Assembly: GCA_944371305.1 (NCBI GenBank)
Contig: CALVXM010000002.1
Location: 34,661-98,660 of the forward strand
Reading direction: 5' to 3'
DNA length: 64,000 nt
Origin: an uncultured Bacilli bacterium
Lineage (GTDB): Bacteria; Bacillota_I; Bacilli_A; RF39; UBA660
In this document: piece after piece, positions 895-60,800 of the stretch
Numbering within the stretch: position 1 is the stretch's first letter
How the letters are laid out: the number at the start of each line of letters is the position of its first letter
Notes under the pieces: generated by a model
Seen by the model: the letters and a program-made list of their open reading frames with translations, nothing else
What the model was told of the DNA's origin: nothing
Databases searched by the model: none
Translations under genes and position numbers: made by a program

Positions 895-2907
895 TTAATC
901 TAAACTATCCAATTCTTTCAACACATTATAAATATACTGATATTTATCTTGATAATTTTCCATAAATTCTAAACTATCTTCCTTAGCCAGTACAACCATT
1001 TTAAAATCTTTTTTTAAATCTGCTAACTTAAATTGCATATCACCACTTTGTTTAGTTCCAAACAAATCACCGCTACCTCTTAATTTGAAATCAGCTTCAC
1101 TTATTTCAAAGCCGTCGTTAGTTTTAGTTAAAATTTTTAATCTCTCAGCTTCTTGATTACTAATCATAATAAAATAAGATTGTAAATCACTTCGCCCAAC
1201 ACGACCTCTTAACTGGTGTAGAGCAGATAAACCAAAACGGTAACTATCAAAGACAACCATCATTGTTGCATTAGCTACATCAACCCCAACTTCAATAACT
1301 GTCGTACTAATTAAAATTTGAATTTTATTTTCTTTAAAATCATTCATTACAGTTTCTTTTTCTTTATTAGATAATTTACCATGCATTATGCCGACTGTAA
1401 ACAATTTACCAAATGCCAAATTCATTTTATCTTGCAATTTTATTACATTTTCCAATTGTATTTTATCGCTTTCTTCGATTAAAGGAGCAATGACATAAAT
1501 TTGATGACCAAGTTTTAATTGCTCATACATCATCGTTAATACCGCTTTAATTTCACTTTCTTTTTTTAAATAACTAATTACCTCTTTACGACCTGCTGGT
1601 TTAGTTTTGATACTTGAAATATCCATATCACCAAATAAAGTAATCGCATAAGTTCTAGGAATCGGTGTAGCACTCATGTATAAAACATCAGGCATAATTC
1701 CTTTATTCTTTAAATTACTTCTTTGATTAACACCAAACCTATGTTGTTCATCAGTAATAACTAAGCCCAAATTAGCATACTTAACATCTTCACTAATTAA
1801 AGCGTGAGTTCCGATTACAATATCTATTGAACCATCTTCTAATCCAGTATAAATTTCTTTTTTTTCTTTAGCTTTTAATTTACCAGTCAATAAACTAACT
1901 TTAACACTCGGTAAAAGTTTAACTAAATTATTATAATGTTGCCTAGCAAGAATTTCTGTTGGTGCCATCAAAGCACCTTGATAACCAGCCAAATAATTAA
2001 TATACAAAGCAATAAAAGAAACAATCGTTTTCCCGCTTCCTACATCACCCTGTAATAACCGATTCATTCTTTTTTCGCCAGTTAAATCACGATAAATATC
2101 TTGAACAGATTTTTCTTGATCGACAGTCAATTTAAACGGTAAATTATTAATAAATTCTAAAACCTTATCTTTAGATACATCTCTTTTTAATCCTTTTTGA
2201 ATTTTTTTGGATTTCAGATAATTCATTTTTAACATAAAAATAAATAATTCTTCATACTTTAATTTATTAATAGCCAATTTAAGATTATCTAAATTTGTTG
2301 GATTATGAATTTCTTTGATACTTTTATCTTTATCTAAAAAACTATATTTTTCATTTAAATAATCTGGAACATAATCTAAAGTATCGATATCGATACTTCT
2401 AATTATGTTATTTAATTGAGAACTATTAATTCCAGTCGTAACATGATAAACTGGCTCTATTTTAGTCATATCACCTAAAGGAGTAAACTTAATATCGCTA
2501 CAAATAATTAAATTCTTTTTCTTATCAAATTTACCGATAACGGTTAATTTAGTCCCTACAACAATTTTATTTTTAAAAAATCCACGATTAAAAATAGTAA
2601 CTTTCAATATTTTACTACCAACATTCAAATTAAAATCCATTTTATCCTTATGATTTCTTATATAAGTAACAACGGCATTAGTTTCAACAATGCCATCAAT
2701 AATTATTTTATCATTCTGTTCTAATGAATTAAGATCACTTTTTTTTATAATATCATAGCGAAAAGGATAATAAGCTATTAAATCAAAACAATCATTAATT
2801 CCTAATCTTCTTAACGTATTAATCATTTTAGGTCCTATGCCTTTAATATTTTCTAAATTCATAATTTCACCAATATCATTATAGCAAACATATTTTTGTT
2901 TGTCCAT
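895..2907 (-). CDS. recG: ATP-dependent DNA helicase RecG
   Basis: 670 aa with wedge domain, Walker A GDVGSGKT, DEQHRFGV motif and helicase C motifs. GAAGGAAG RBS. Confidence 0.95.
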   Translation of the reverse strand: MDKQKYVCYNDIGEIMNLENIKGIGPKMINTLRRLGINDCFDLIAYYPFRYDIIKKSDLNSLEQNDKIIIDGIVETNAVVTYIRNHKDKMDFNLNVGSKILKVTIFNRGFFKNKIVVGTKLTVIGKFDKKKNLIICSDIKFTPLGDMTKIEPVYHVTTGINSSQLNNIIRSIDIDTLDYVPDYLNEKYSFLDKDKSIKEIHNPTNLDNLKLAINKLKYEELFIFMLKMNYLKSKKIQKGLKRDVSKDKVLEFINNLPFKLTVDQEKSVQDIYRDLTGEKRMNRLLQGDVGSGKTIVSFIALYINYLAGYQGALMAPTEILARQHYNNLVKLLPSVKVSLLTGKLKAKEKKEIYTGLEDGSIDIVIGTHALISEDVKYANLGLVITDEQHRFGVNQRSNLKNKGIMPDVLYMSATPIPRTYAITLFGDMDISSIKTKPAGRKEVISYLKKESEIKAVLTMMYEQLKLGHQIYVIAPLIEESDKIQLENVIKLQDKMNLAFGKLFTVGIMHGKLSNKEKETVMNDFKENKIQILISTTVIEVGVDVANATMMVVFDSYRFGLSALHQLRGRVGRSDLQSYFIMISNQEAERLKILTKTNDGFEISEADFKLRGSGDLFGTKQSGDMQFKLADLKKDFKMVVLAKEDSLEFMENYQDKYQYIYNVLKELDSLD

Positions 2908-3758: not shown

Positions 3759-4661
3759 TTATATTTTTAAATATTTGCGAACCGCACGCCATGAACCAAA
3801 CATACCAACTAAAATGCCAATAGCCATTAAAACCAATGAAACAATATAAGTAAATGGCAATGGTGTAATTAATTGAATAAATGGTGACATAATTTGTCCA
3901 TTAAATGAATTATATAAAGCTTCATAACCTATTATAGTAACTAAAATTGGTATAATTGAACCAAATAATCCTAAAAATAAACCTTCTAATATAAACGGTA
4001 TTTTTATATTAATATTTGATGCGCCAACTAAACGCATAATTTCGATTTCTCTTTTTCTTGAAAAAATAGTTATCTTGATAGTATTTGAAATCAAGAATGC
4101 CGTAACAATAATCAAAGCAATTACAACACCATAACTGACTTTTTTAACAATATCAAATACAGATACTAATTGTTCAACCATTCCTTCGCCATATTTAACA
4201 CTGTTAACACCGTCAATTTGCTCAATTTCTTTAGCTACTTCATCAATTTTATTAATATCGGTTACCTTTACTTGAAAAGCATCTAGTAATGGATTATCTT
4301 CCCTATCATCATATTTTTCTAATATACTATTAAAATCACCACTTTCTTCCATCATTTCAGAAGAAATCGTCATTTTATCTTCAAAAGTAAATGACTCAAC
4401 ATTATTAATAAGATTGATTTCATCCTTAATTTCTTCAATCCTTTCAAGTGAAATATCTCTATCTAAAAAGGCAACAATCGTCATGTCTTTTTCAACCGCT
4501 TTAGTAAAATTATTTACATTAAATGATAAAATTATGGCAATTGATACAACCAATAACGTTATTACAATACAAGCAATTGAAGCTAATGAAAGAGAAAAGT
4601 TACGAAAAACACTTTTAAATGCATCACGAATATTTCTTCCTAAAATTCTAAATGCTTTCAT
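3759..4661 (-). CDS. ftsX: Cell-division ABC transporter permease FtsX
   Basis: Four C-terminal TM helices, a large extracellular loop, and a position directly downstream of ftsE. Start chosen at the ATG (MKAFRILGRNIRD) 8 nt after GGAAGGAGA; it overlaps the ftsE 3' end by 14 nt. Confidence 0.85.
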   Translation of the reverse strand: MKAFRILGRNIRDAFKSVFRNFSLSLASIACIVITLLVVSIAIILSFNVNNFTKAVEKDMTIVAFLDRDISLERIEEIKDEINLINNVESFTFEDKMTISSEMMEESGDFNSILEKYDDREDNPLLDAFQVKVTDINKIDEVAKEIEQIDGVNSVKYGEGMVEQLVSVFDIVKKVSYGVVIALIIVTAFLISNTIKITIFSRKREIEIMRLVGASNINIKIPFILEGLFLGLFGSIIPILVTIIGYEALYNSFNGQIMSPFIQLITPLPFTYIVSLVLMAIGILVGMFGSWRAVRKYLKI

Positions 4662-11332: not shown

Positions 11333-11416
11333 ATTTATGTAAACAAATGTCAAAATCAGATTATTTCACATTCAAAAAATACAATATGTGCTACAATAAT
11401 TTTGGAGGTATTTGTA

Positions 11417-12442
11417 ATGAAATGTGTAGCAATTAAAGGCGTTAAACAATTTGAAATTAAGGAAATCGAAGAACCTAAATCAGAAAATGGTGAAGTTGTC
11501 ATCGATGTATTGAAAACAGGAATATGTGGTTCTGATATTCATTATTGGGTTTTAGGACAACCTATCGGTTTAGTAATGGGACACGAATATTGTGGAGTAG
11601 TCACTGACCCAGGGAGTCGACAAGATTTAAAAATCGGTGATCGGGTTACTGCTTTACCAATTTCCCCTTGTAATGAATGTCCAGCTTGTTTAACAGGAAA
11701 TCCACAGTACTGTAGACAAACATGGGCACATGCTACTGGATTGTCTTTAACAAACCCAGGTGGTTTAGCTCCTAAAATGAAAATTAGACCAGATATGGTA
11801 TTAAAAGTTCCAGATAATTTGAAAGATGAGGAAGTGGCAATGGTAGAACCAACAGCCGTTGGTCTACATGCTATCCATTTAGCTGACGTTAAAGTCGGTG
11901 ATAAAGTATTGGTTATAGGAGCAGGCATCATCGGTTTAGTTTCAGCAATGTTTGCCAAAATGGAAGGCGCTAGTTATGTTGCAATTAGTGAACCAAATGA
12001 AGCTAGAGCTAAAAGAGCTATTGAATTAGGGGTAGCTGACGAATGGTTTAACGCTAAAGACGAAAAATTAACCGAAAAACTACTATTCAAAACTAATGGT
12101 GGATTTGATTTGGCTGTTGATTGTTGTGGTAATTCTAAAGCTGTTAGTAGTGCTATTATGGCAGTTCATCCAGGTGGTAAAGTTGTCTTAGCTGGCGTTT
12201 CTATGACACCAGTTACTATTCCAACGGTAGTAGCAGTTATGAGTGAAATAACTATAATTAGTTCAATTGCTTATACTAAAGAAGAATTTCAAACTTGTAT
12301 CAATTTAATGGCTGATAAAAAAATAGACATGATGAAATTTGTTGATGAGATTGTCGATTTAGAACATGTACAACAATCTTATGAAAGATTAACCTTAGGA
12401 ACTGATAGCGCTGTTAAAATATTAGTAGATCCAAATAAATAA
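11417..12442 (+). CDS. Zn-dependent alcohol/polyol dehydrogenase (MDR family; threonine/sorbitol dehydrogenase-like)
   Basis: GICGSDIHYW and GHEYCGVV zinc-binding motifs, a structural-Zn cysteine cluster CNECPACLTGNPQYC, and a GxGxxG Rossmann motif. GGAGG RBS 8 nt before the ATG at 11417. Confidence 0.8.
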   Translation: MKCVAIKGVKQFEIKEIEEPKSENGEVVIDVLKTGICGSDIHYWVLGQPIGLVMGHEYCGVVTDPGSRQDLKIGDRVTALPISPCNECPACLTGNPQYCRQTWAHATGLSLTNPGGLAPKMKIRPDMVLKVPDNLKDEEVAMVEPTAVGLHAIHLADVKVGDKVLVIGAGIIGLVSAMFAKMEGASYVAISEPNEARAKRAIELGVADEWFNAKDEKLTEKLLFKTNGGFDLAVDCCGNSKAVSSAIMAVHPGGKVVLAGVSMTPVTIPTVVAVMSEITIISSIAYTKEEFQTCINLMADKKIDMMKFVDEIVDLEHVQQSYERLTLGTDSAVKILVDPNK

Positions 12443-12487
12443 ACATAATTCTTAATAAAACTATTATATTAGATATTGTCAAAGACC

Positions 12488-12518
12488 AAAAAAAGAACTA
12501 TTTCAAGTTCTTTTTTTA
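12488..12518. terminator. Bidirectional intrinsic terminator between the dehydrogenase gene and nrdG
   Basis: AAAAAAAGAACT-atttca-AGTTCTTTTTTT: a perfect 6-bp stem flanked by A and T runs. Confidence 0.6.
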
Positions 12519-12541
12519 GTTCTAATTCATTTTCTAATCTT

Positions 12542-13093
12542 TTATAAATACACAGCTGTTTTTTTCTTAAAATCATAATTTTTTTTATCTTTATATTTTT
12601 CAACTAAAATAACTTTATTTTCTTTTAAACTATTTTGAACATCAATAACTCTCTGATTTTCTGAACCTTTAAATTTTAAATCCAAACTTCGTTGCTCTAA
12701 AATAAATTTGCCATCTACTAAAACATCAACATAGTTTAAAAATTCGATTATTTTAGGATTATTTAAAGCTAATAACTGTTCAAACGTATAACCGGTATAA
12801 CACCACACATTAAGATTAATTTTTTTACAATATTTAACTATTTCTAAACAAGCATCTACTTGAAACAAAGGATCTCCACCTGATAAGGTAATTCCATCTT
12901 GTCCTTGAATACTATTTAATTCTTCTTTAATTTCCTCAAGATCAACCAAATATCCACCTTTAAAATCCCATGTTTCTTGGTTATGGCATCCTTTACAATG
13001 ATGTGAACAACCTTGTGTCCACAAAACGACCCTAATTCCTTCACCATCAACGATACTATCCGGTTGTAATGGAGCTGCTAATCTAATTTTCAT
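12542..13093 (-). CDS. nrdG: Anaerobic ribonucleoside-triphosphate reductase activating protein (radical SAM)
   Basis: CSHHCKGCHNQETW radical-SAM cluster motif. The start overlaps the stop of the upstream nrdD fragment (TAATG). Confidence 0.9.
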   Translation of the reverse strand: MKIRLAAPLQPDSIVDGEGIRVVLWTQGCSHHCKGCHNQETWDFKGGYLVDLEEIKEELNSIQGQDGITLSGGDPLFQVDACLEIVKYCKKINLNVWCYTGYTFEQLLALNNPKIIEFLNYVDVLVDGKFILEQRSLDLKFKGSENQRVIDVQNSLKENKVILVEKYKDKKNYDFKKKTAVYL

Positions 13094-13254
13094 TATGCGT
13101 TCTCGATATCTTTAGTACCATGTTTTACGCGATCACGTTCTTCTGCTCTTTTACCATCGTTAAAACGGTCTACTGTTCCAACTAAATATCCCGTAATTCT
13201 TCTAATTCTTTCAAATTTAACGCCTTCGCCTACTTTTTTTTCTTCTAATTTCAT
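13093..13254 (-). CDS. nrdD: NrdD C-terminal glycyl-radical domain fragment (53 aa), separated from the main nrdD ORF by one in-frame TAG
   Basis: MKLEEKKVGEGVKFERIRRITGYLVGTVDRFNDGKRAEERDRVKHGTKDIENA contains the class III RNR glycyl-radical signature RxxGY. It has its own AGGAG RBS 5 nt upstream and is in the same frame as the upstream ORF. Confidence 0.7.
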   Translation of the reverse strand: MKLEEKKVGEGVKFERIRRITGYLVGTVDRFNDGKRAEERDRVKHGTKDIENA

Positions 13255-13263
13255 AAATCTCTC

Positions 13264-15576
13264 CTACCTTCCATAATTAGTCAATGACATATTTTTAAGA
13301 GTTTCTACACTAACTCCCTCACAATCGTGACGTCCACAACCAGGACATACATCACCAATTACACCTGTATATCCACAAACTGGATCACGGTCAACTGGAT
13401 GATTAATAGCTCCATAACCGATACCTTCTTTATACATAATTCTAACTATTTTTTCAAATGCTTCTAAATTATTAGTAGTATCGCCGTCTAATTCGACATA
13501 AGTAATATGTCCAGCATTAGTTAAAGCATGATATGGTGCTTCGATATGAATTTTTTCTGAAGCAGTTATTTTATAATAAACAGGAACATGGAATGAATTG
13601 GTATAATATTCTCTATCGGTAATTCCTTTTAATTTACCATAAATAGCTCTATCAATATTAGTAAATCTTCCTGATAGTCCTTCAGCAGGAGTAGCTAATA
13701 AAGTAAAGTTTAAATTATATTTACTAGCATATTCATCGCATTTTTTACGCATAAAAGTAATAATTTCATAACCCAATTTACGTGCTTTTTCGTCCTCACC
13801 ATGATGTTTTCCAACCAAAGCTTTTAAACATTCAGCAAGACCAATAAATCCAATTGATAAAGTACCATGTTTATAAATTTTACGTAATCTATCGTTTGGT
13901 TTTAGTTTTTCAGAATCAAGCCATACACCACTTCCTAATAAGAAAGGGAAGTTGTAAGGTTTTTTAGTACATTGAAATTCAAATCTTTCTAATAATTGAT
14001 CCCTTACTAAATCCATTTTTTCTTCTAATTCAGCATAAAATCCTTTTAAATCAGTTTCATTATTACTTACAATACCATGTTTAATACCTAATCTAGGTAA
14101 ATTAATAGTTGTAAAAGATAAATTTCCGCGTCCTGGTGTAACTGCCTTATCAGGATCAACGACATTTCCTAAAACTCTAGTTCGACATCCCATATAACCA
14201 ACTTCAGTAGTATAATCACCTTTATAATATTGTTTGTTAAAAGGAGCATCCATAAATGAAAAATTAGGGAATAATCTTTTAGCTGATACCTTGCAAGCTA
14301 ATTTAAATAAATCATAATTAGGATCATCAACATCAAAATTTGTTCCTTTTCTAACCTTAAAAATAGAAATTGGGAAAATTGGTGTTTCACCTTTTCCTAA
14401 ACCTGCATCAGTAGCTAACAAATAATTTTCAATAACCATTCTTCCCTCGGCTGATGTATCAGTACCAAAGTTAATTGAAGAAAATGGTACTTGTGCTCCA
14501 GCTCGAGAATGCATAGTATTTAAATTATGAATAAACGCCTCCATTGCTTGATAAGTTATCCGGTCAGTCTTAGCCAAAGCTTTTTCGTAAGCCATCTTAA
14601 ACAATCTTTCAACTTCGCTTGAATCTTTAGCAAAATGATAAAAATCGCTAATATCAAATTCAATACTTTCTAACTTATCAATTTCTTTAGCAATATTATT
14701 CATATTAACAAATTTAGCAAAATCACTATAATCTAATAAATCAGCTATAGTTTGTTTAAATTGTTTTTTAAATGTATTTAATACACCAGGAGCCATATAA
14801 TAATCAAAAGCTGGAATACTTTGACCTCCATGTTGATCATTTTGATTTGATTGAATAGCAATTGCGGCCAAAGCACTATATGACATTATATCTTTAGGTG
14901 CTCTTAAATGACCATGTCCAGTCGAAAAACCATTTTTAAATAATTTTTCCAAATCGATTTGCATGCATGTTGTTGTTCCCATCGCATAAAAGTCCATATC
15001 ATGAACATGAATATCGCCACTATCATGAGCTTCACTGAATTTATATTTCATTAAATAAGCTTTACAGAACTCTTTAGAAACAGTACTTCCATATTGTAAC
15101 ATTGTTCCCATCGCTGTATCACCATCAACGTTAGCATTTTCTCTTTTAGCATCTTCTTCGTGAGCTGATTTTAAACCCAATCCTTCGATAGCTTTTAAAA
15201 ATTTATGTAATTGTTTTTCATCAGAAAACATTTTACGTGATAAATTTCTTCTTTCGCGATATTCTGAAAAACTTTCATACACATCTTGATAGCCTTTTTT
15301 CTTCAATTCTTCTTCAATCATATCTTGAATAGTTTCAATTTTAATCTTTTCTTCGTTAGCGTACTCTTTTTCAATTCTTTTTAAAACACCCTCATACACT
15401 TTATTAACATCTTTAGTAGTATATTTAAGTTCTTCACCAGTTTCCTCATCGATTTCATTAACACTATCAAAACCTTTTTTTATTGCCAAAGCAATTTTTG
15501 AACCATTAAAATCTACTTTCTTACCATTTCTTTTTACAACTTGCAAAGTTGCCACTTTTTCCTCAACGTCTATCAT
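13264..15576 (-). CDS. nrdD: Anaerobic ribonucleoside-triphosphate reductase NrdD (catalytic body, ends after the Zn-ribbon)
   Basis: 770 aa with an N-terminal ATP-cone, conserved class III RNR core, and a C-terminal Cys cluster CGYTG..CPGCGRHDC, then stop TAG (13266..13264). Confidence 0.9.
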   Translation of the reverse strand: MIDVEEKVATLQVVKRNGKKVDFNGSKIALAIKKGFDSVNEIDEETGEELKYTTKDVNKVYEGVLKRIEKEYANEEKIKIETIQDMIEEELKKKGYQDVYESFSEYRERRNLSRKMFSDEKQLHKFLKAIEGLGLKSAHEEDAKRENANVDGDTAMGTMLQYGSTVSKEFCKAYLMKYKFSEAHDSGDIHVHDMDFYAMGTTTCMQIDLEKLFKNGFSTGHGHLRAPKDIMSYSALAAIAIQSNQNDQHGGQSIPAFDYYMAPGVLNTFKKQFKQTIADLLDYSDFAKFVNMNNIAKEIDKLESIEFDISDFYHFAKDSSEVERLFKMAYEKALAKTDRITYQAMEAFIHNLNTMHSRAGAQVPFSSINFGTDTSAEGRMVIENYLLATDAGLGKGETPIFPISIFKVRKGTNFDVDDPNYDLFKLACKVSAKRLFPNFSFMDAPFNKQYYKGDYTTEVGYMGCRTRVLGNVVDPDKAVTPGRGNLSFTTINLPRLGIKHGIVSNNETDLKGFYAELEEKMDLVRDQLLERFEFQCTKKPYNFPFLLGSGVWLDSEKLKPNDRLRKIYKHGTLSIGFIGLAECLKALVGKHHGEDEKARKLGYEIITFMRKKCDEYASKYNLNFTLLATPAEGLSGRFTNIDRAIYGKLKGITDREYYTNSFHVPVYYKITASEKIHIEAPYHALTNAGHITYVELDGDTTNNLEAFEKIVRIMYKEGIGYGAINHPVDRDPVCGYTGVIGDVCPGCGRHDCEGVSVETLKNMSLTNYGR

Positions 15577-15954
15577 AACTTACCTCAACTTTCTATTTTC
15601 ATTATAGTATTAATAACAACAAATGTCAAACAAAAATTCACATTTTTTAAAAAAATATTTTTACTAAAAATTTATTTTTTTAAAAATCCCTTTATTTTAA
15701 ATAATTTAATTTCTGAATTAATTTTAAATTAATCAAATTTGATATATTTGCTTAATTTCATTTTAAATTCAAGCAATATTCAAATAAATTAATTTTTTGT
15801 TAATATAAATAAAATAAATTTTTTTTAATTTTTGAAAAAAATTAAAAAAAGAATTTTTTTATTTTTACTTATTTTTTTCAAAATACAAAGCAAACCGATT
15901 AACAAACATTTTTTTGCTTTTAATAAATATACTTATATTATAATATACTTTAAT

Positions 15955-16323
15955 ATGAAAAAAAACGAATTAGAAGTAGTAAATGCTCAATTTTTAATTT
16001 CTAGTTTATTATTAATCACTTTGATTATTTCTTTTAGTTTGCTTTTTGATGAAAAAAAACGAATTTTAACAGGAAAAAGACTTTTTCCTAATAGTTATAA
16101 ATATATAAATTTATTTAATAAAGTTTTATTCGTATTTGTCTTGATATACAGTTTAGGAGTAAACTATATACAATATGAACAAAATAAAAAAGGAAACTCA
16201 GTTCCTTTTAAAAATCAAGTATACGCTTCCATATTCAATTTAATCGGTGGAATCATCATTTTATATGTGGTTATACAAACATGGAATAATGATGAGGTTG
16301 CCAGCTTAGAAAACACTACCTAA
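15955..16323 (+). CDS. Hypothetical small membrane protein
   Basis: ORF from the ATG at 15955 (MKKNELEV...) has 3-4 predicted TM helices and no recognisable family. The upstream part of the track ORF is low-complexity AT-rich sequence. Confidence 0.35.
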   Translation: MKKNELEVVNAQFLISSLLLITLIISFSLLFDEKKRILTGKRLFPNSYKYINLFNKVLFVFVLIYSLGVNYIQYEQNKKGNSVPFKNQVYASIFNLIGGIIILYVVIQTWNNDEVASLENTT

Positions 16324-52051: not shown

Positions 52052-52128
52052 TGGGGCGCAATAAGGGATTCGAACCCTTGCATAACGGAACCACAATCCG
52101 CCGTGTTAACCCCTTCACCAATTGCGCC
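52052..52128 (-). tRNA. tRNA-His (anticodon GTG) with encoded G-1 and CCA
   Basis: Manually folded: 7-bp acceptor stem GCGCAAT/ATTGCGC, extra 5' G-1 pairing with discriminator C73, anticodon stem GCGGA/TCCGT with loop TTGTGGT (GTG), T-arm AAGGG-TTCGAAT-CCCTT, and encoded CCA. Confidence 0.9.
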
Positions 52129-60717: not shown

Positions 60718-60800
60718 AACTAATATCTCCTTCCGCCATGACTAAACTAAGTCATAGAAATTTAATGCCTTTATATTATAACAAAGAAAAACGATAAAAA

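Follow-up and report, generated by a model that had tools for sequence, protein, structure and literature searches.

Many strict anaerobes obtain their DNA precursors solely or mainly through class III (anaerobic) ribonucleotide reductase (RNR), a textbook example of a single-chain glycyl-radical enzyme (GRE). Oxygen cleaves glycyl-radical proteins at the radical glycine and, to our knowledge, the glycyl-radical domain is buried in every solved structure. A class I RNR in two pieces is reportedly found in Aeromonas phage Aeh1, where Friedrich et al. are said to have described, in 2007, an NrdA split by the homing endonuclease gene mobE. Split RNR domains have been regarded as distinct to class II, with NrdJa/NrdJb cited (PMC9669993). 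Among GREs, no class other than the formate lyases has any identified spare-part proteins according to a 2026 review (PMC13450708), and a 2021 paper speculated that further spare-part proteins exist beyond pyruvate formate-lyase (PFL). Here, we analysed a window of 64,000 nt (the whole stretch of DNA under study, 26.7% G+C; contig CALVXM010000002.1 of an uncultured Bacilli bacterium), in which the class III gene nrdD is present as two consecutive genes, nrdD-large and nrdD-small, followed by the activase gene nrdG. These three genes very probably form an operon for an authentic two-chain class III RNR.

Alignment with NrdD proteins places the ATP-cone, the NxN flap, the zinc finger and the catalytic barrel, with its putative thiyl-radical cysteine (Cys464), on the large chain; on the small chain there are only the RRITG22Y loop and the C-terminal tail. 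The small gene has, by its sequence, its own ribosome-binding site and start codon.

Operon layout and anatomy of the two chains

The operon lies on the minus strand and comprises the following genes and sites (gene coordinates include the stops).

13264..15576, minus strand: nrdD-large, encoding the 770-aa catalytic chain with ATP-cone, alpha/beta barrel, zinc finger and short tail, without the glycyl-radical loop
13093..13254, minus strand: nrdD-small, encoding the 53-aa glycyl-radical chain with the Gly loop and the C-terminal surface tail; sequence MKLEEKKVGEGVKFERIRRITGYLVGTVDRFNDGKRAEERDRVKHGTKDIENA
12542..13093, minus strand: nrdG, encoding the 183-aa radical S-adenosylmethionine activase (TIGR02491, 165.7 bits, cut-off 126.1; matches to PF13353 and PF04055)
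13266..13264, minus strand: TAG stop of nrdD-large, the last G of which is the first base of the GGAG ribosome-binding site of the small gene
13255..13264, minus strand: intergenic spacer GAGAGATTT, with the Shine-Dalgarno sequence GGAG at 13264..13261, 6 nt ahead of the ATG
15601..15629, minus strand: promoter-like site TTGACA-17 nt-TATAAT upstream of nrdD-large, 12/12 consensus matches (a consensus match alone)

The C-terminus of the large chain, ...CPGCGRHDCEGVSVETLKNMSLTNYGR, is followed by TAG, by GAG AGA TTT (9 nt, in frame) and by the ATG of the small gene at 13254..13252. The TAA of nrdD-small (13095..13093) shares its final A with the ATG of nrdG (TAATG), a one-base overlap. The first-pass annotation of this DNA had described an nrdD ending in TAG, an ATG 9 nt later in the same frame, an RxxGY motif on the second open reading frame (ORF) and a stop overlapping the nrdG start, and all of these were present. 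It had also described an AGGAGA at ideal spacing; the Shine-Dalgarno sequence stands, but the bases actually read AGG-TAG-GAG-AGA. The promoter-like site was the sole perfect match within 12300..16000, and the promoter-consensus scan of the same interval detected no comparable site ahead of nrdD-small. In addition, an Rfam scan of the window gave no RNA element near the operon.

Within the two chains, the following elements were located.

15244..15543, minus strand: ATP-cone (allosteric activity site), large-chain residues 12-111 (PF03477, E-value 7.6e-15)
14185..14187, minus strand: codon of Cys464 in the YMGCRTRV loop, putative thiyl-radical cysteine, aligned with the ATMGCRTRV loop of Prevotella copri NrdD (PcNrdD; native Cys416)
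13384..13386, minus strand: Asp731 of the large chain, at the first Cys position of the four-Cys zinc site (HPVDRDPVC)
13330..13377, minus strand: zinc-finger segment C734...C744-P-G-C747-G-R749, which stays on the large chain and aligns with CLDCGY...CPKCG of PcNrdD
13294..13323, minus strand: vestigial repeat CEGVSVETLK, large-chain residues 752-761, in which the first strand of the glycyl module recurs in degenerate form
13201..13230, minus strand: GEGVKFERIR, small-chain residues 9-18, the functional copy of the duplicated segment
13189..13191, minus strand: codon of Gly22 in RRITG22Y, predicted glycyl-radical residue, aligned with QRITGY of PcNrdD (native Gly711)

The large chain scored 1011.5 bits against NF005497 (cut-off 764) and 573 against TIGR02487 (cut-off 326), matched PF13597 over residues 146-755 with an E-value of 5.6e-189, and aligned with PcNrdD (structure 8P23) with an E-value of 2.7e-180. 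The small chain alone gave 46.7 and 33.8 bits against the NCBIfam models, under their cut-offs, and 33.0 bits against PF13597 (cut-off 26.2); it matched only the last ~35 positions of the NrdD models (NRDD positions 532-562 in PF13597), and the Pfam search returned no match to PF01228, the PFL-type Gly_radical family. The 746 positions of NF005497 were partitioned between the chains, the large piece covering positions 3-716 and the small piece 710-745. The RxxGY motif was absent from the 770-aa chain, which ends ...LTNYGR.

In PcNrdD, the structural paper names Cys416 and Gly711 and defines residues 676-739 as the glycyl-radical domain, composed of the zinc site, the buried Gly711 loop and a tail that crosses the surface; it describes this domain as highly mobile, to the point of being invisible in inhibited states (PMC11226230). 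In our alignment to 8P23, the large chain ends at chain residue 708, while the small chain covers residues 708-738 (DKLQRITGYLVGTTDRWNSGKLAELHDRVTH). Taken with the domain limits, this break indicates that the cut falls within the glycyl-radical domain, at a point between the zinc finger and the Gly loop, such that the zinc finger stays with the barrel. Cys464 was invariant in alignments A3 and A5, as was Gly22 in alignment A1, and by homology Cys464 should take the radical from the small chain. The NxN flap is kept in the large chain as ENANVDGD in the alignment to 8P23. Three of the four canonical zinc cysteines (C734, C744 and C747) are present, metal binding being predicted only. The Asp at the first zinc-Cys position was found in 64 of 67 clade members, split or fused alike, and Cys was kept only in Succinivibrionaceae members; the metal site of Asp731-type chains may consist of three Cys plus Asp or His.

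Of the properties tested for assignment to NrdD, the family cut-off, the thiyl-Cys loop and the adjacent nrdG gave positive results, and the RxxGY loop on the same chain a negative one. By these signatures, the locus is assigned to class III RNR in every tested respect save the single-chain glycyl loop. As to the large-chain tails, a CC or CxC pair was observed within the last 12 residues in 22 of 63 split large chains (L004, L015, L017-L019, L024, L027, L029, L030, L035, L044, L075 and others), which is reminiscent of the redox-shuttle cysteine pairs on the tails of class I/II RNRs, or of an extra metal site. Such a pair is missing from the large chain of the window (..NMSLTNYGR), and the tails of Clostridia-type large chains share ELRKKYPxMPxFxGIE instead.

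Distribution of the split genes and nature of the junction

The best 120 small-protein matches, drawn from 7998 significant ones, were all stand-alone proteins of 50-77 residues and shared the pattern M-K-x-[ED]-E-[KR]-K-V-G-E-G-V-x-F-E-R-I-R-R-I-T-G-Y. When 1.84 billion cluster representatives were searched exhaustively, 782 of them reached E<=1e-10; the best 150 were all short (52-175 residues), which indicates that stand-alone small proteins make up at least 150 distinct clusters at 50% identity. The contexts of three diverse members showed an identical order of large nrdD (766-770 aa), small gene and nrdG. We also scanned species genomes (GTDB, one genome per species, seeded with split-type small proteins), and the best 80 loci consisted of 63 split operons, 13 orphan small genes and 4 fused genes; the order large-small-nrdG, with tight or overlapping junctions, was thus present in 63 of 80. 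The carriers were mostly metagenome-assembled genomes (MAGs) of gut Bacilli and Clostridia, and included Clostridium sp. CAG:417, Mogibacterium, Succinivibrio dextrinosolvens DSM 3072, Succinatimonas, Anaerobiospirillum, Desulfovibrio, Mailhella, a Treponemataceae MAG and Fibrobacter. In a search seeded with the large piece, and hence independent of the small one, 117 of the 120 closest homologues were without the glycyl motif, and the other three were fused, with 80-82% identity to the large chain; the small chain is ~90% identical to the C-terminus of these fused relatives. Judged from these matches, the split NrdD is conserved across many bacterial lineages and common in gut anaerobes.

Two loci of the scan are described separately. 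In one Desulfovibrio MAG (L073 3501..4116), the small gene and nrdG were adjacent and the upstream 767-aa ORF, which looks MetE-like from its N-terminus alone, was unrelated; the large chain must be encoded elsewhere in this genome, and the gene order is therefore not obligatory. In a 'Tenericutes' MAG (L036 2370..3448), the large nrdD was in two overlapping pieces in different frames with the N-terminal part missing, which reflects a frameshift, an assembly error or a genuine pseudogene.

A gene that is canonical but for a lone stop typically signals a sequencing or assembly error, or recent inactivation to a pseudogene, and the window is a single sequence. The first-pass annotation, which listed error or pseudogene among its options, had proposed that positions 13264..13266 be compared with independent assemblies. 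The TAG junction (...GGAAGG TAG GAGAGATTT ATG...) was identical in eight independent metagenome assemblies, seven of which differed from the window by 0-4 nt across the 3-kb operon, the eighth being ~90% identical. In public assemblies, 60 contigs have a call for exactly this 53-residue protein; for near-identical cluster members the counts are 347 and 242 contigs. Compared with relatives, the conserved core of the small gene gave ratios of non-synonymous to synonymous differences per site (pN/pS) of 0.03-0.22, with synonymous sites near saturation, and the first part of the large-chain tail segment gave pN 0.07-0.26 versus pS 0.48-0.93, indicating constraint. By these ratios, both pieces, each a separate gene, are under purifying selection. 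Moreover, split large chains end in a conserved, clade-specific tail of 17-45 residues, which is unexpected from a fresh nonsense mutation. By these comparisons the disruption is conserved across phyla rather than sporadic, and the locus does not classify as a pseudogene; we reject error and inactivation as having next to no probability.

Alternatively, readthrough of the stop or recoding of TAG (e.g. by pyrrolysine or a suppressor) would yield one 827-residue NrdD, and the downstream start and ribosome-binding site would then be incidental. The two ORFs of the window are indeed in frame, separated by a 9-nt spacer without a further stop, and TAG with an in-frame spacer recurs in some relatives (L001, L007, L009 and L013). 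However, the junctions of 66 split loci (L061 and L088 were left out, the automatic 'large ORF' being no NrdD) proved diverse: the large gene ended in TAA in 43, TAG in 18 and TGA in 5, the small ORF lay in relative frame 0, 1 or 2 in 22, 18 and 26 loci, respectively, and the spacers ranged from -1 (1-base overlap) to ~216 nt, mostly with a Shine-Dalgarno sequence at the normal distance. Even within the clade of the window, no more than 10 of the 27 members have the small ORF in frame, and in L010, the nearest relative examined from the genome collection (92% identity over the large piece), the spacer is 11 nt long and out of frame. Given these two observations, the in-frame relation in the window, which the first-pass annotation had emphasized, is a coincidence. 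In another relative (L004), TAA is followed by a second in-frame TAA and then by a change of frame.

The preference of this clade for TAG has an explanation of its own. The clade junction reads aga-TAG-GAGG-N6-9-ATG, and TAG is frequent because the AG of the stop belongs to the AGGAGG ribosome-binding site (TAGGAGG). Within the window, the 61 long ORFs end in TAA (38), TAG (14) and TGA (9), and since all three stop codons are in use, TAG is an ordinary stop here. Also against readthrough are the conserved Met-Lys start and Shine-Dalgarno sequence of the small ORF and the occurrence of orphan small genes far from any nrdD. The position of the stop between the nrdD pieces, its frame and its identity are, as the aligned junctions show, not conserved; this includes the TAG, the conservation of which in related nrdD genes the first-pass annotation had suggested checking. 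Programmed readthrough, another of its options, is accordingly rejected, and we regard a single 827-residue product as highly unlikely. Reassignment of TAG was considered as well, and was rejected on the stop-codon usage of the window and the junction stop codons of the relatives. No homing endonuclease, intron or intein was detected between the pieces, with no ORF inside the spacer of 9 nt in the window or of -1 to ~216 nt in the relatives. The remaining option of the first-pass annotation, an authentic two-piece class III RNR with a free glycyl module, is strongly supported by the comparative data.

Origin of the split, proposed mechanism and phage-borne copies

We analysed the sequences on both sides of the cut. 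Fused relatives read C-P-x-C-G-R-TEADGVKFERIRRITGY. In all split large chains, C-P-x-C-G-R is followed by [RHK][DE]-G-E-G-V-[SP]-[VI]-E-[RK]-[LIV]-[KR] and then by the clade-specific tail, and all small chains contain V-G-E-G-V-K-F-E-R-I-R-R. The degenerate repeat was seen in all 63 split relatives. The mean BLOSUM62 score of the tail decamer against the small-chain decamer was 24.2, compared with -8.8 (standard deviation 1.0) for shuffles, and in 53 of 63 species no other decamer anywhere in the large protein scored better than the tail decamer. One MAFFT alignment (A2), which was discarded for modelling, placed the small proteins onto the duplicated segment of the large tail. The presence of the GEGV segment in two copies indicates that the split most likely originated in a partial tandem duplication at the 3' end. 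After duplication, the first copy would have lost the Gly loop and the second would have acquired a start site; if the stretch between the repeats were deleted, a fused gene would result again. In a neighbour-joining tree without support values, fused genes were nested among split ones, which is consistent with re-fusion by such a deletion. The large-chain tail perhaps has a placeholder role.

In the mechanism that we propose, ribosomes that end at TAG would re-initiate 9 nt downstream, and again at TAATG into nrdG, and this translational coupling would lead to roughly matched amounts of the three proteins. NrdG, with S-adenosylmethionine, would abstract hydrogen from Gly22 of the small chain, and the Gly loop would then insert into the large-chain barrel beside Cys464, rebuilding the normal active site. 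Damage by oxygen would destroy only the cheap 6-kDa chain, sparing the 88-kDa catalytic chain. Coupling, activation, docking and the advantage in repair are drawn from homology to single-chain NrdD and from the analogy with GrcA. The small chain is predicted to be an obligate subunit, because its large partner is without any glycyl loop.

Several points weigh against a two-chain enzyme of this kind. Expression, complex formation, a radical on the small chain and enzyme activity are all properties that we infer from homology and analogy only. When the chains were joined end to end, AlphaFold2 gave a mean predicted local distance difference test score (pLDDT) of 59.7 with 24 sequences (residues 726-823 below 50) and of 69.5 with 67 sequences (residues 754-805 and 465-486 below 50, the small chain forming one long helix); with the tail, the small chain and the Cys loop below 50, docking is left structurally unsupported by the models. 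Neither another RNR nor an intact nrdD was present among the ten largest other ORFs of the window, a view limited to 64 kb. The ratios of split to fused loci (76:4 in genomes and 79:1 on viral contigs) overstate the prevalence of the split, because the scans were seeded with split-type small proteins. Big fused sister clades exist, and a profile of the fused form gave 120 fused matches out of 120 (Flavonifractor, Intestinimonas, Lawsonibacter and relatives). Finally, a single origin followed by re-fusions and several independent origins are both compatible with the tree.

The two pieces might also not be parts of one enzyme. The large chain would then be radical-less, with another role or none in ribonucleotide reduction, and the small protein would be a GrcA-like spare part or regulator for an intact GRE or NrdD elsewhere. 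The orphan copies in phages and prophages described below show that the action of the small protein need not be tied to a large gene next to it, and both the lack of usable docking in AlphaFold2 and the view of only 64 kb of the genome leave room for separate roles. Against separate roles are the recurrent large-small-nrdG order with its tight or overlapping junctions, the retention of every tested catalytic element in the large chain, and the 50-93% identity of nrdD-large to active-type NrdDs. The near identity of the small chain to the C-terminus of fused relatives, and its match to NRDD rather than to the PFL-type Gly_radical family, likewise connect it with NrdD. Taken together, we consider separate roles unlikely and retain the two-chain RNR.

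In 13 of the best 80 species loci, the small gene was without a large nrdD within 3.5 kb (for example, L054 3366..3671, L061 3387..3722, L062 ~1380..1530 and L083 ~2080..2240). Several of these orphan loci are clearly prophage: in a Bilophila genome the small gene is directly upstream of the gpA terminase gene, and another locus has an integrase and a tail assembly chaperone nearby. The orphan of B. wadsworthia ATCC 49260 adjoins a C5 DNA methylase. IMG/VR contains at least 567 stretches that code for a relative, and the best 80 of these loci (L090-L169, match near 4001) included 68 orphans, 8 orphans with short flanks, 3 split operons and 1 fused gene. Neither a large nrdD nor nrdG was found within ~4 kb of the phage and prophage orphans. 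Among deposited phage genomes, only 14 weak or partial matches were obtained, from unannotated fecal contigs and from the full-length nrdD of C. difficile phages. By pN/pS, the orphan copies are under purifying selection. They match host lineages, as shown by an orphan (MYTRLHAVNGIVGEGVKFERIRRVTGY...) that is 92% identical over 51 residues to the operon small chain of Anaerobiospirillum, and Succinatimonas UBA6849 carries both an operon copy and an orphan copy.

The phage orphans may be an auxiliary spare part for class III RNR. Going further, we propose tentatively, and with slightly less belief than doubt, that the small protein is a diffusible, exchangeable and disposable radical subunit of class III RNR, which would be the first spare-part system outside the formate lyases. 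Only the 6-kDa chain would be cleaved and replaced after exposure to oxygen, and the lineage-matched orphans of temperate and lytic gut phages would plug into the large chain of the host, keeping or boosting anaerobic synthesis of deoxyribonucleoside triphosphates while infection proceeds. The vestigial repeat of the large chain might fill the empty docking groove for as long as no activated small chain has arrived.

As for the rest of the window, an A+T-rich hairpin (AAGAACT-loop-AGTTCTT, 12485..12520) with A and T runs on both sides lies between the convergent nrdG and a zinc-alcohol-dehydrogenase-like gene (11402..12442, plus strand). It looks like a bidirectional terminator, and was not flagged by the terminator scan because its stem has fewer than three G-C pairs. 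The Rfam scan detected an L31-Firmicutes ribosomal-protein leader (60727..60757, minus strand; 34.7 bits, barely over the gathering score of 33.3) and one tRNA (52055..52127, minus strand). Other large ORFs encode ClpB/ClpC-like, RecG, EzrA, EPSP-synthase-fold (MurA-like), methionine gamma-lyase and glycosyltransferase proteins. By gene content, the window is judged to be ordinary Firmicutes chromosome rather than a mobile element.

Comparison with known systems

No description of a split NrdD was found in the full-text-searchable literature (subscription-only papers lie outside it), in which papers on RNR evolution mention only split class II; the JACS 2024 paper on GREs contained nothing relevant, and Pfam, NCBIfam and PHROGs hold no curated family for the small protein. 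The split NrdD is thus apparently previously undescribed. A natural two-chain form would demonstrate that an RNR can work with its glycyl loop supplied in trans, and would offer a natural system for two long-standing questions, namely how the activase gains access to the glycine and how the loop gets into the barrel. It would also make the published speculation on spare-part proteins beyond PFL directly testable, and would bring to light a phage auxiliary gene, abundant in gut viromes, that had no name before. In practice, annotation pipelines give the two pieces the one name "anaerobic ribonucleoside-triphosphate reductase" or give the small piece no name, and a functional essential enzyme may be lost to pseudogene filters.

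The closest counterpart is the single-chain NrdD/NrdG of P. copri (8P23), phage T4 (1H7A) and E. coli, with which the split NrdD shares the domain order (ATP-cone, NxN flap, thiyl-Cys barrel, zinc finger, RxxGY loop and C-terminal tail) and the adjacent nrdG activase. Unlike these enzymes, the split large chain has the additional 17-45-residue tail with the degenerate repeat, and the small chain has an N-terminus of ~8 residues and a translation start of its own, the cut being inside the glycyl-radical domain.

GrcA/YfiD and Y06I of phage T4 are, like the small chain, small stand-alone proteins with a radical glycine, also found in phages, and the benefit of GrcA, cheap replacement after cleavage by oxygen, is likely the same. 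The analogy with GrcA drawn in the first-pass annotation thus stands as far as a stand-alone radical-glycine protein is concerned. It does not extend to homology or to the partner: GrcA is homologous to the C-terminus of PFL (PF01228) and backs up an enzyme with its own glycyl domain, whereas the small chain matches only NrdD and its adjacent partner is without the Gly loop.

The split class II enzyme NrdJa/NrdJb of Pseudomonas aeruginosa resembles the split NrdD in having two adjacent genes with a C-terminal module on the second chain. It differs in that it is B12-dependent, and its second chain has, instead of the radical site, an IscU-like domain, a zinc finger and a Cys pair for re-reduction. 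The NrdA of phage Aeh1 is likewise reported to be a functional RNR large subunit from two separately translated ORFs. In that case, however, the split is due to an inserted mobile endonuclease gene and is confined to one phage, whereas the split in NrdD is widespread, with a spacer of 9 nt in the window, no inserted gene and an apparent tandem duplication at its origin.

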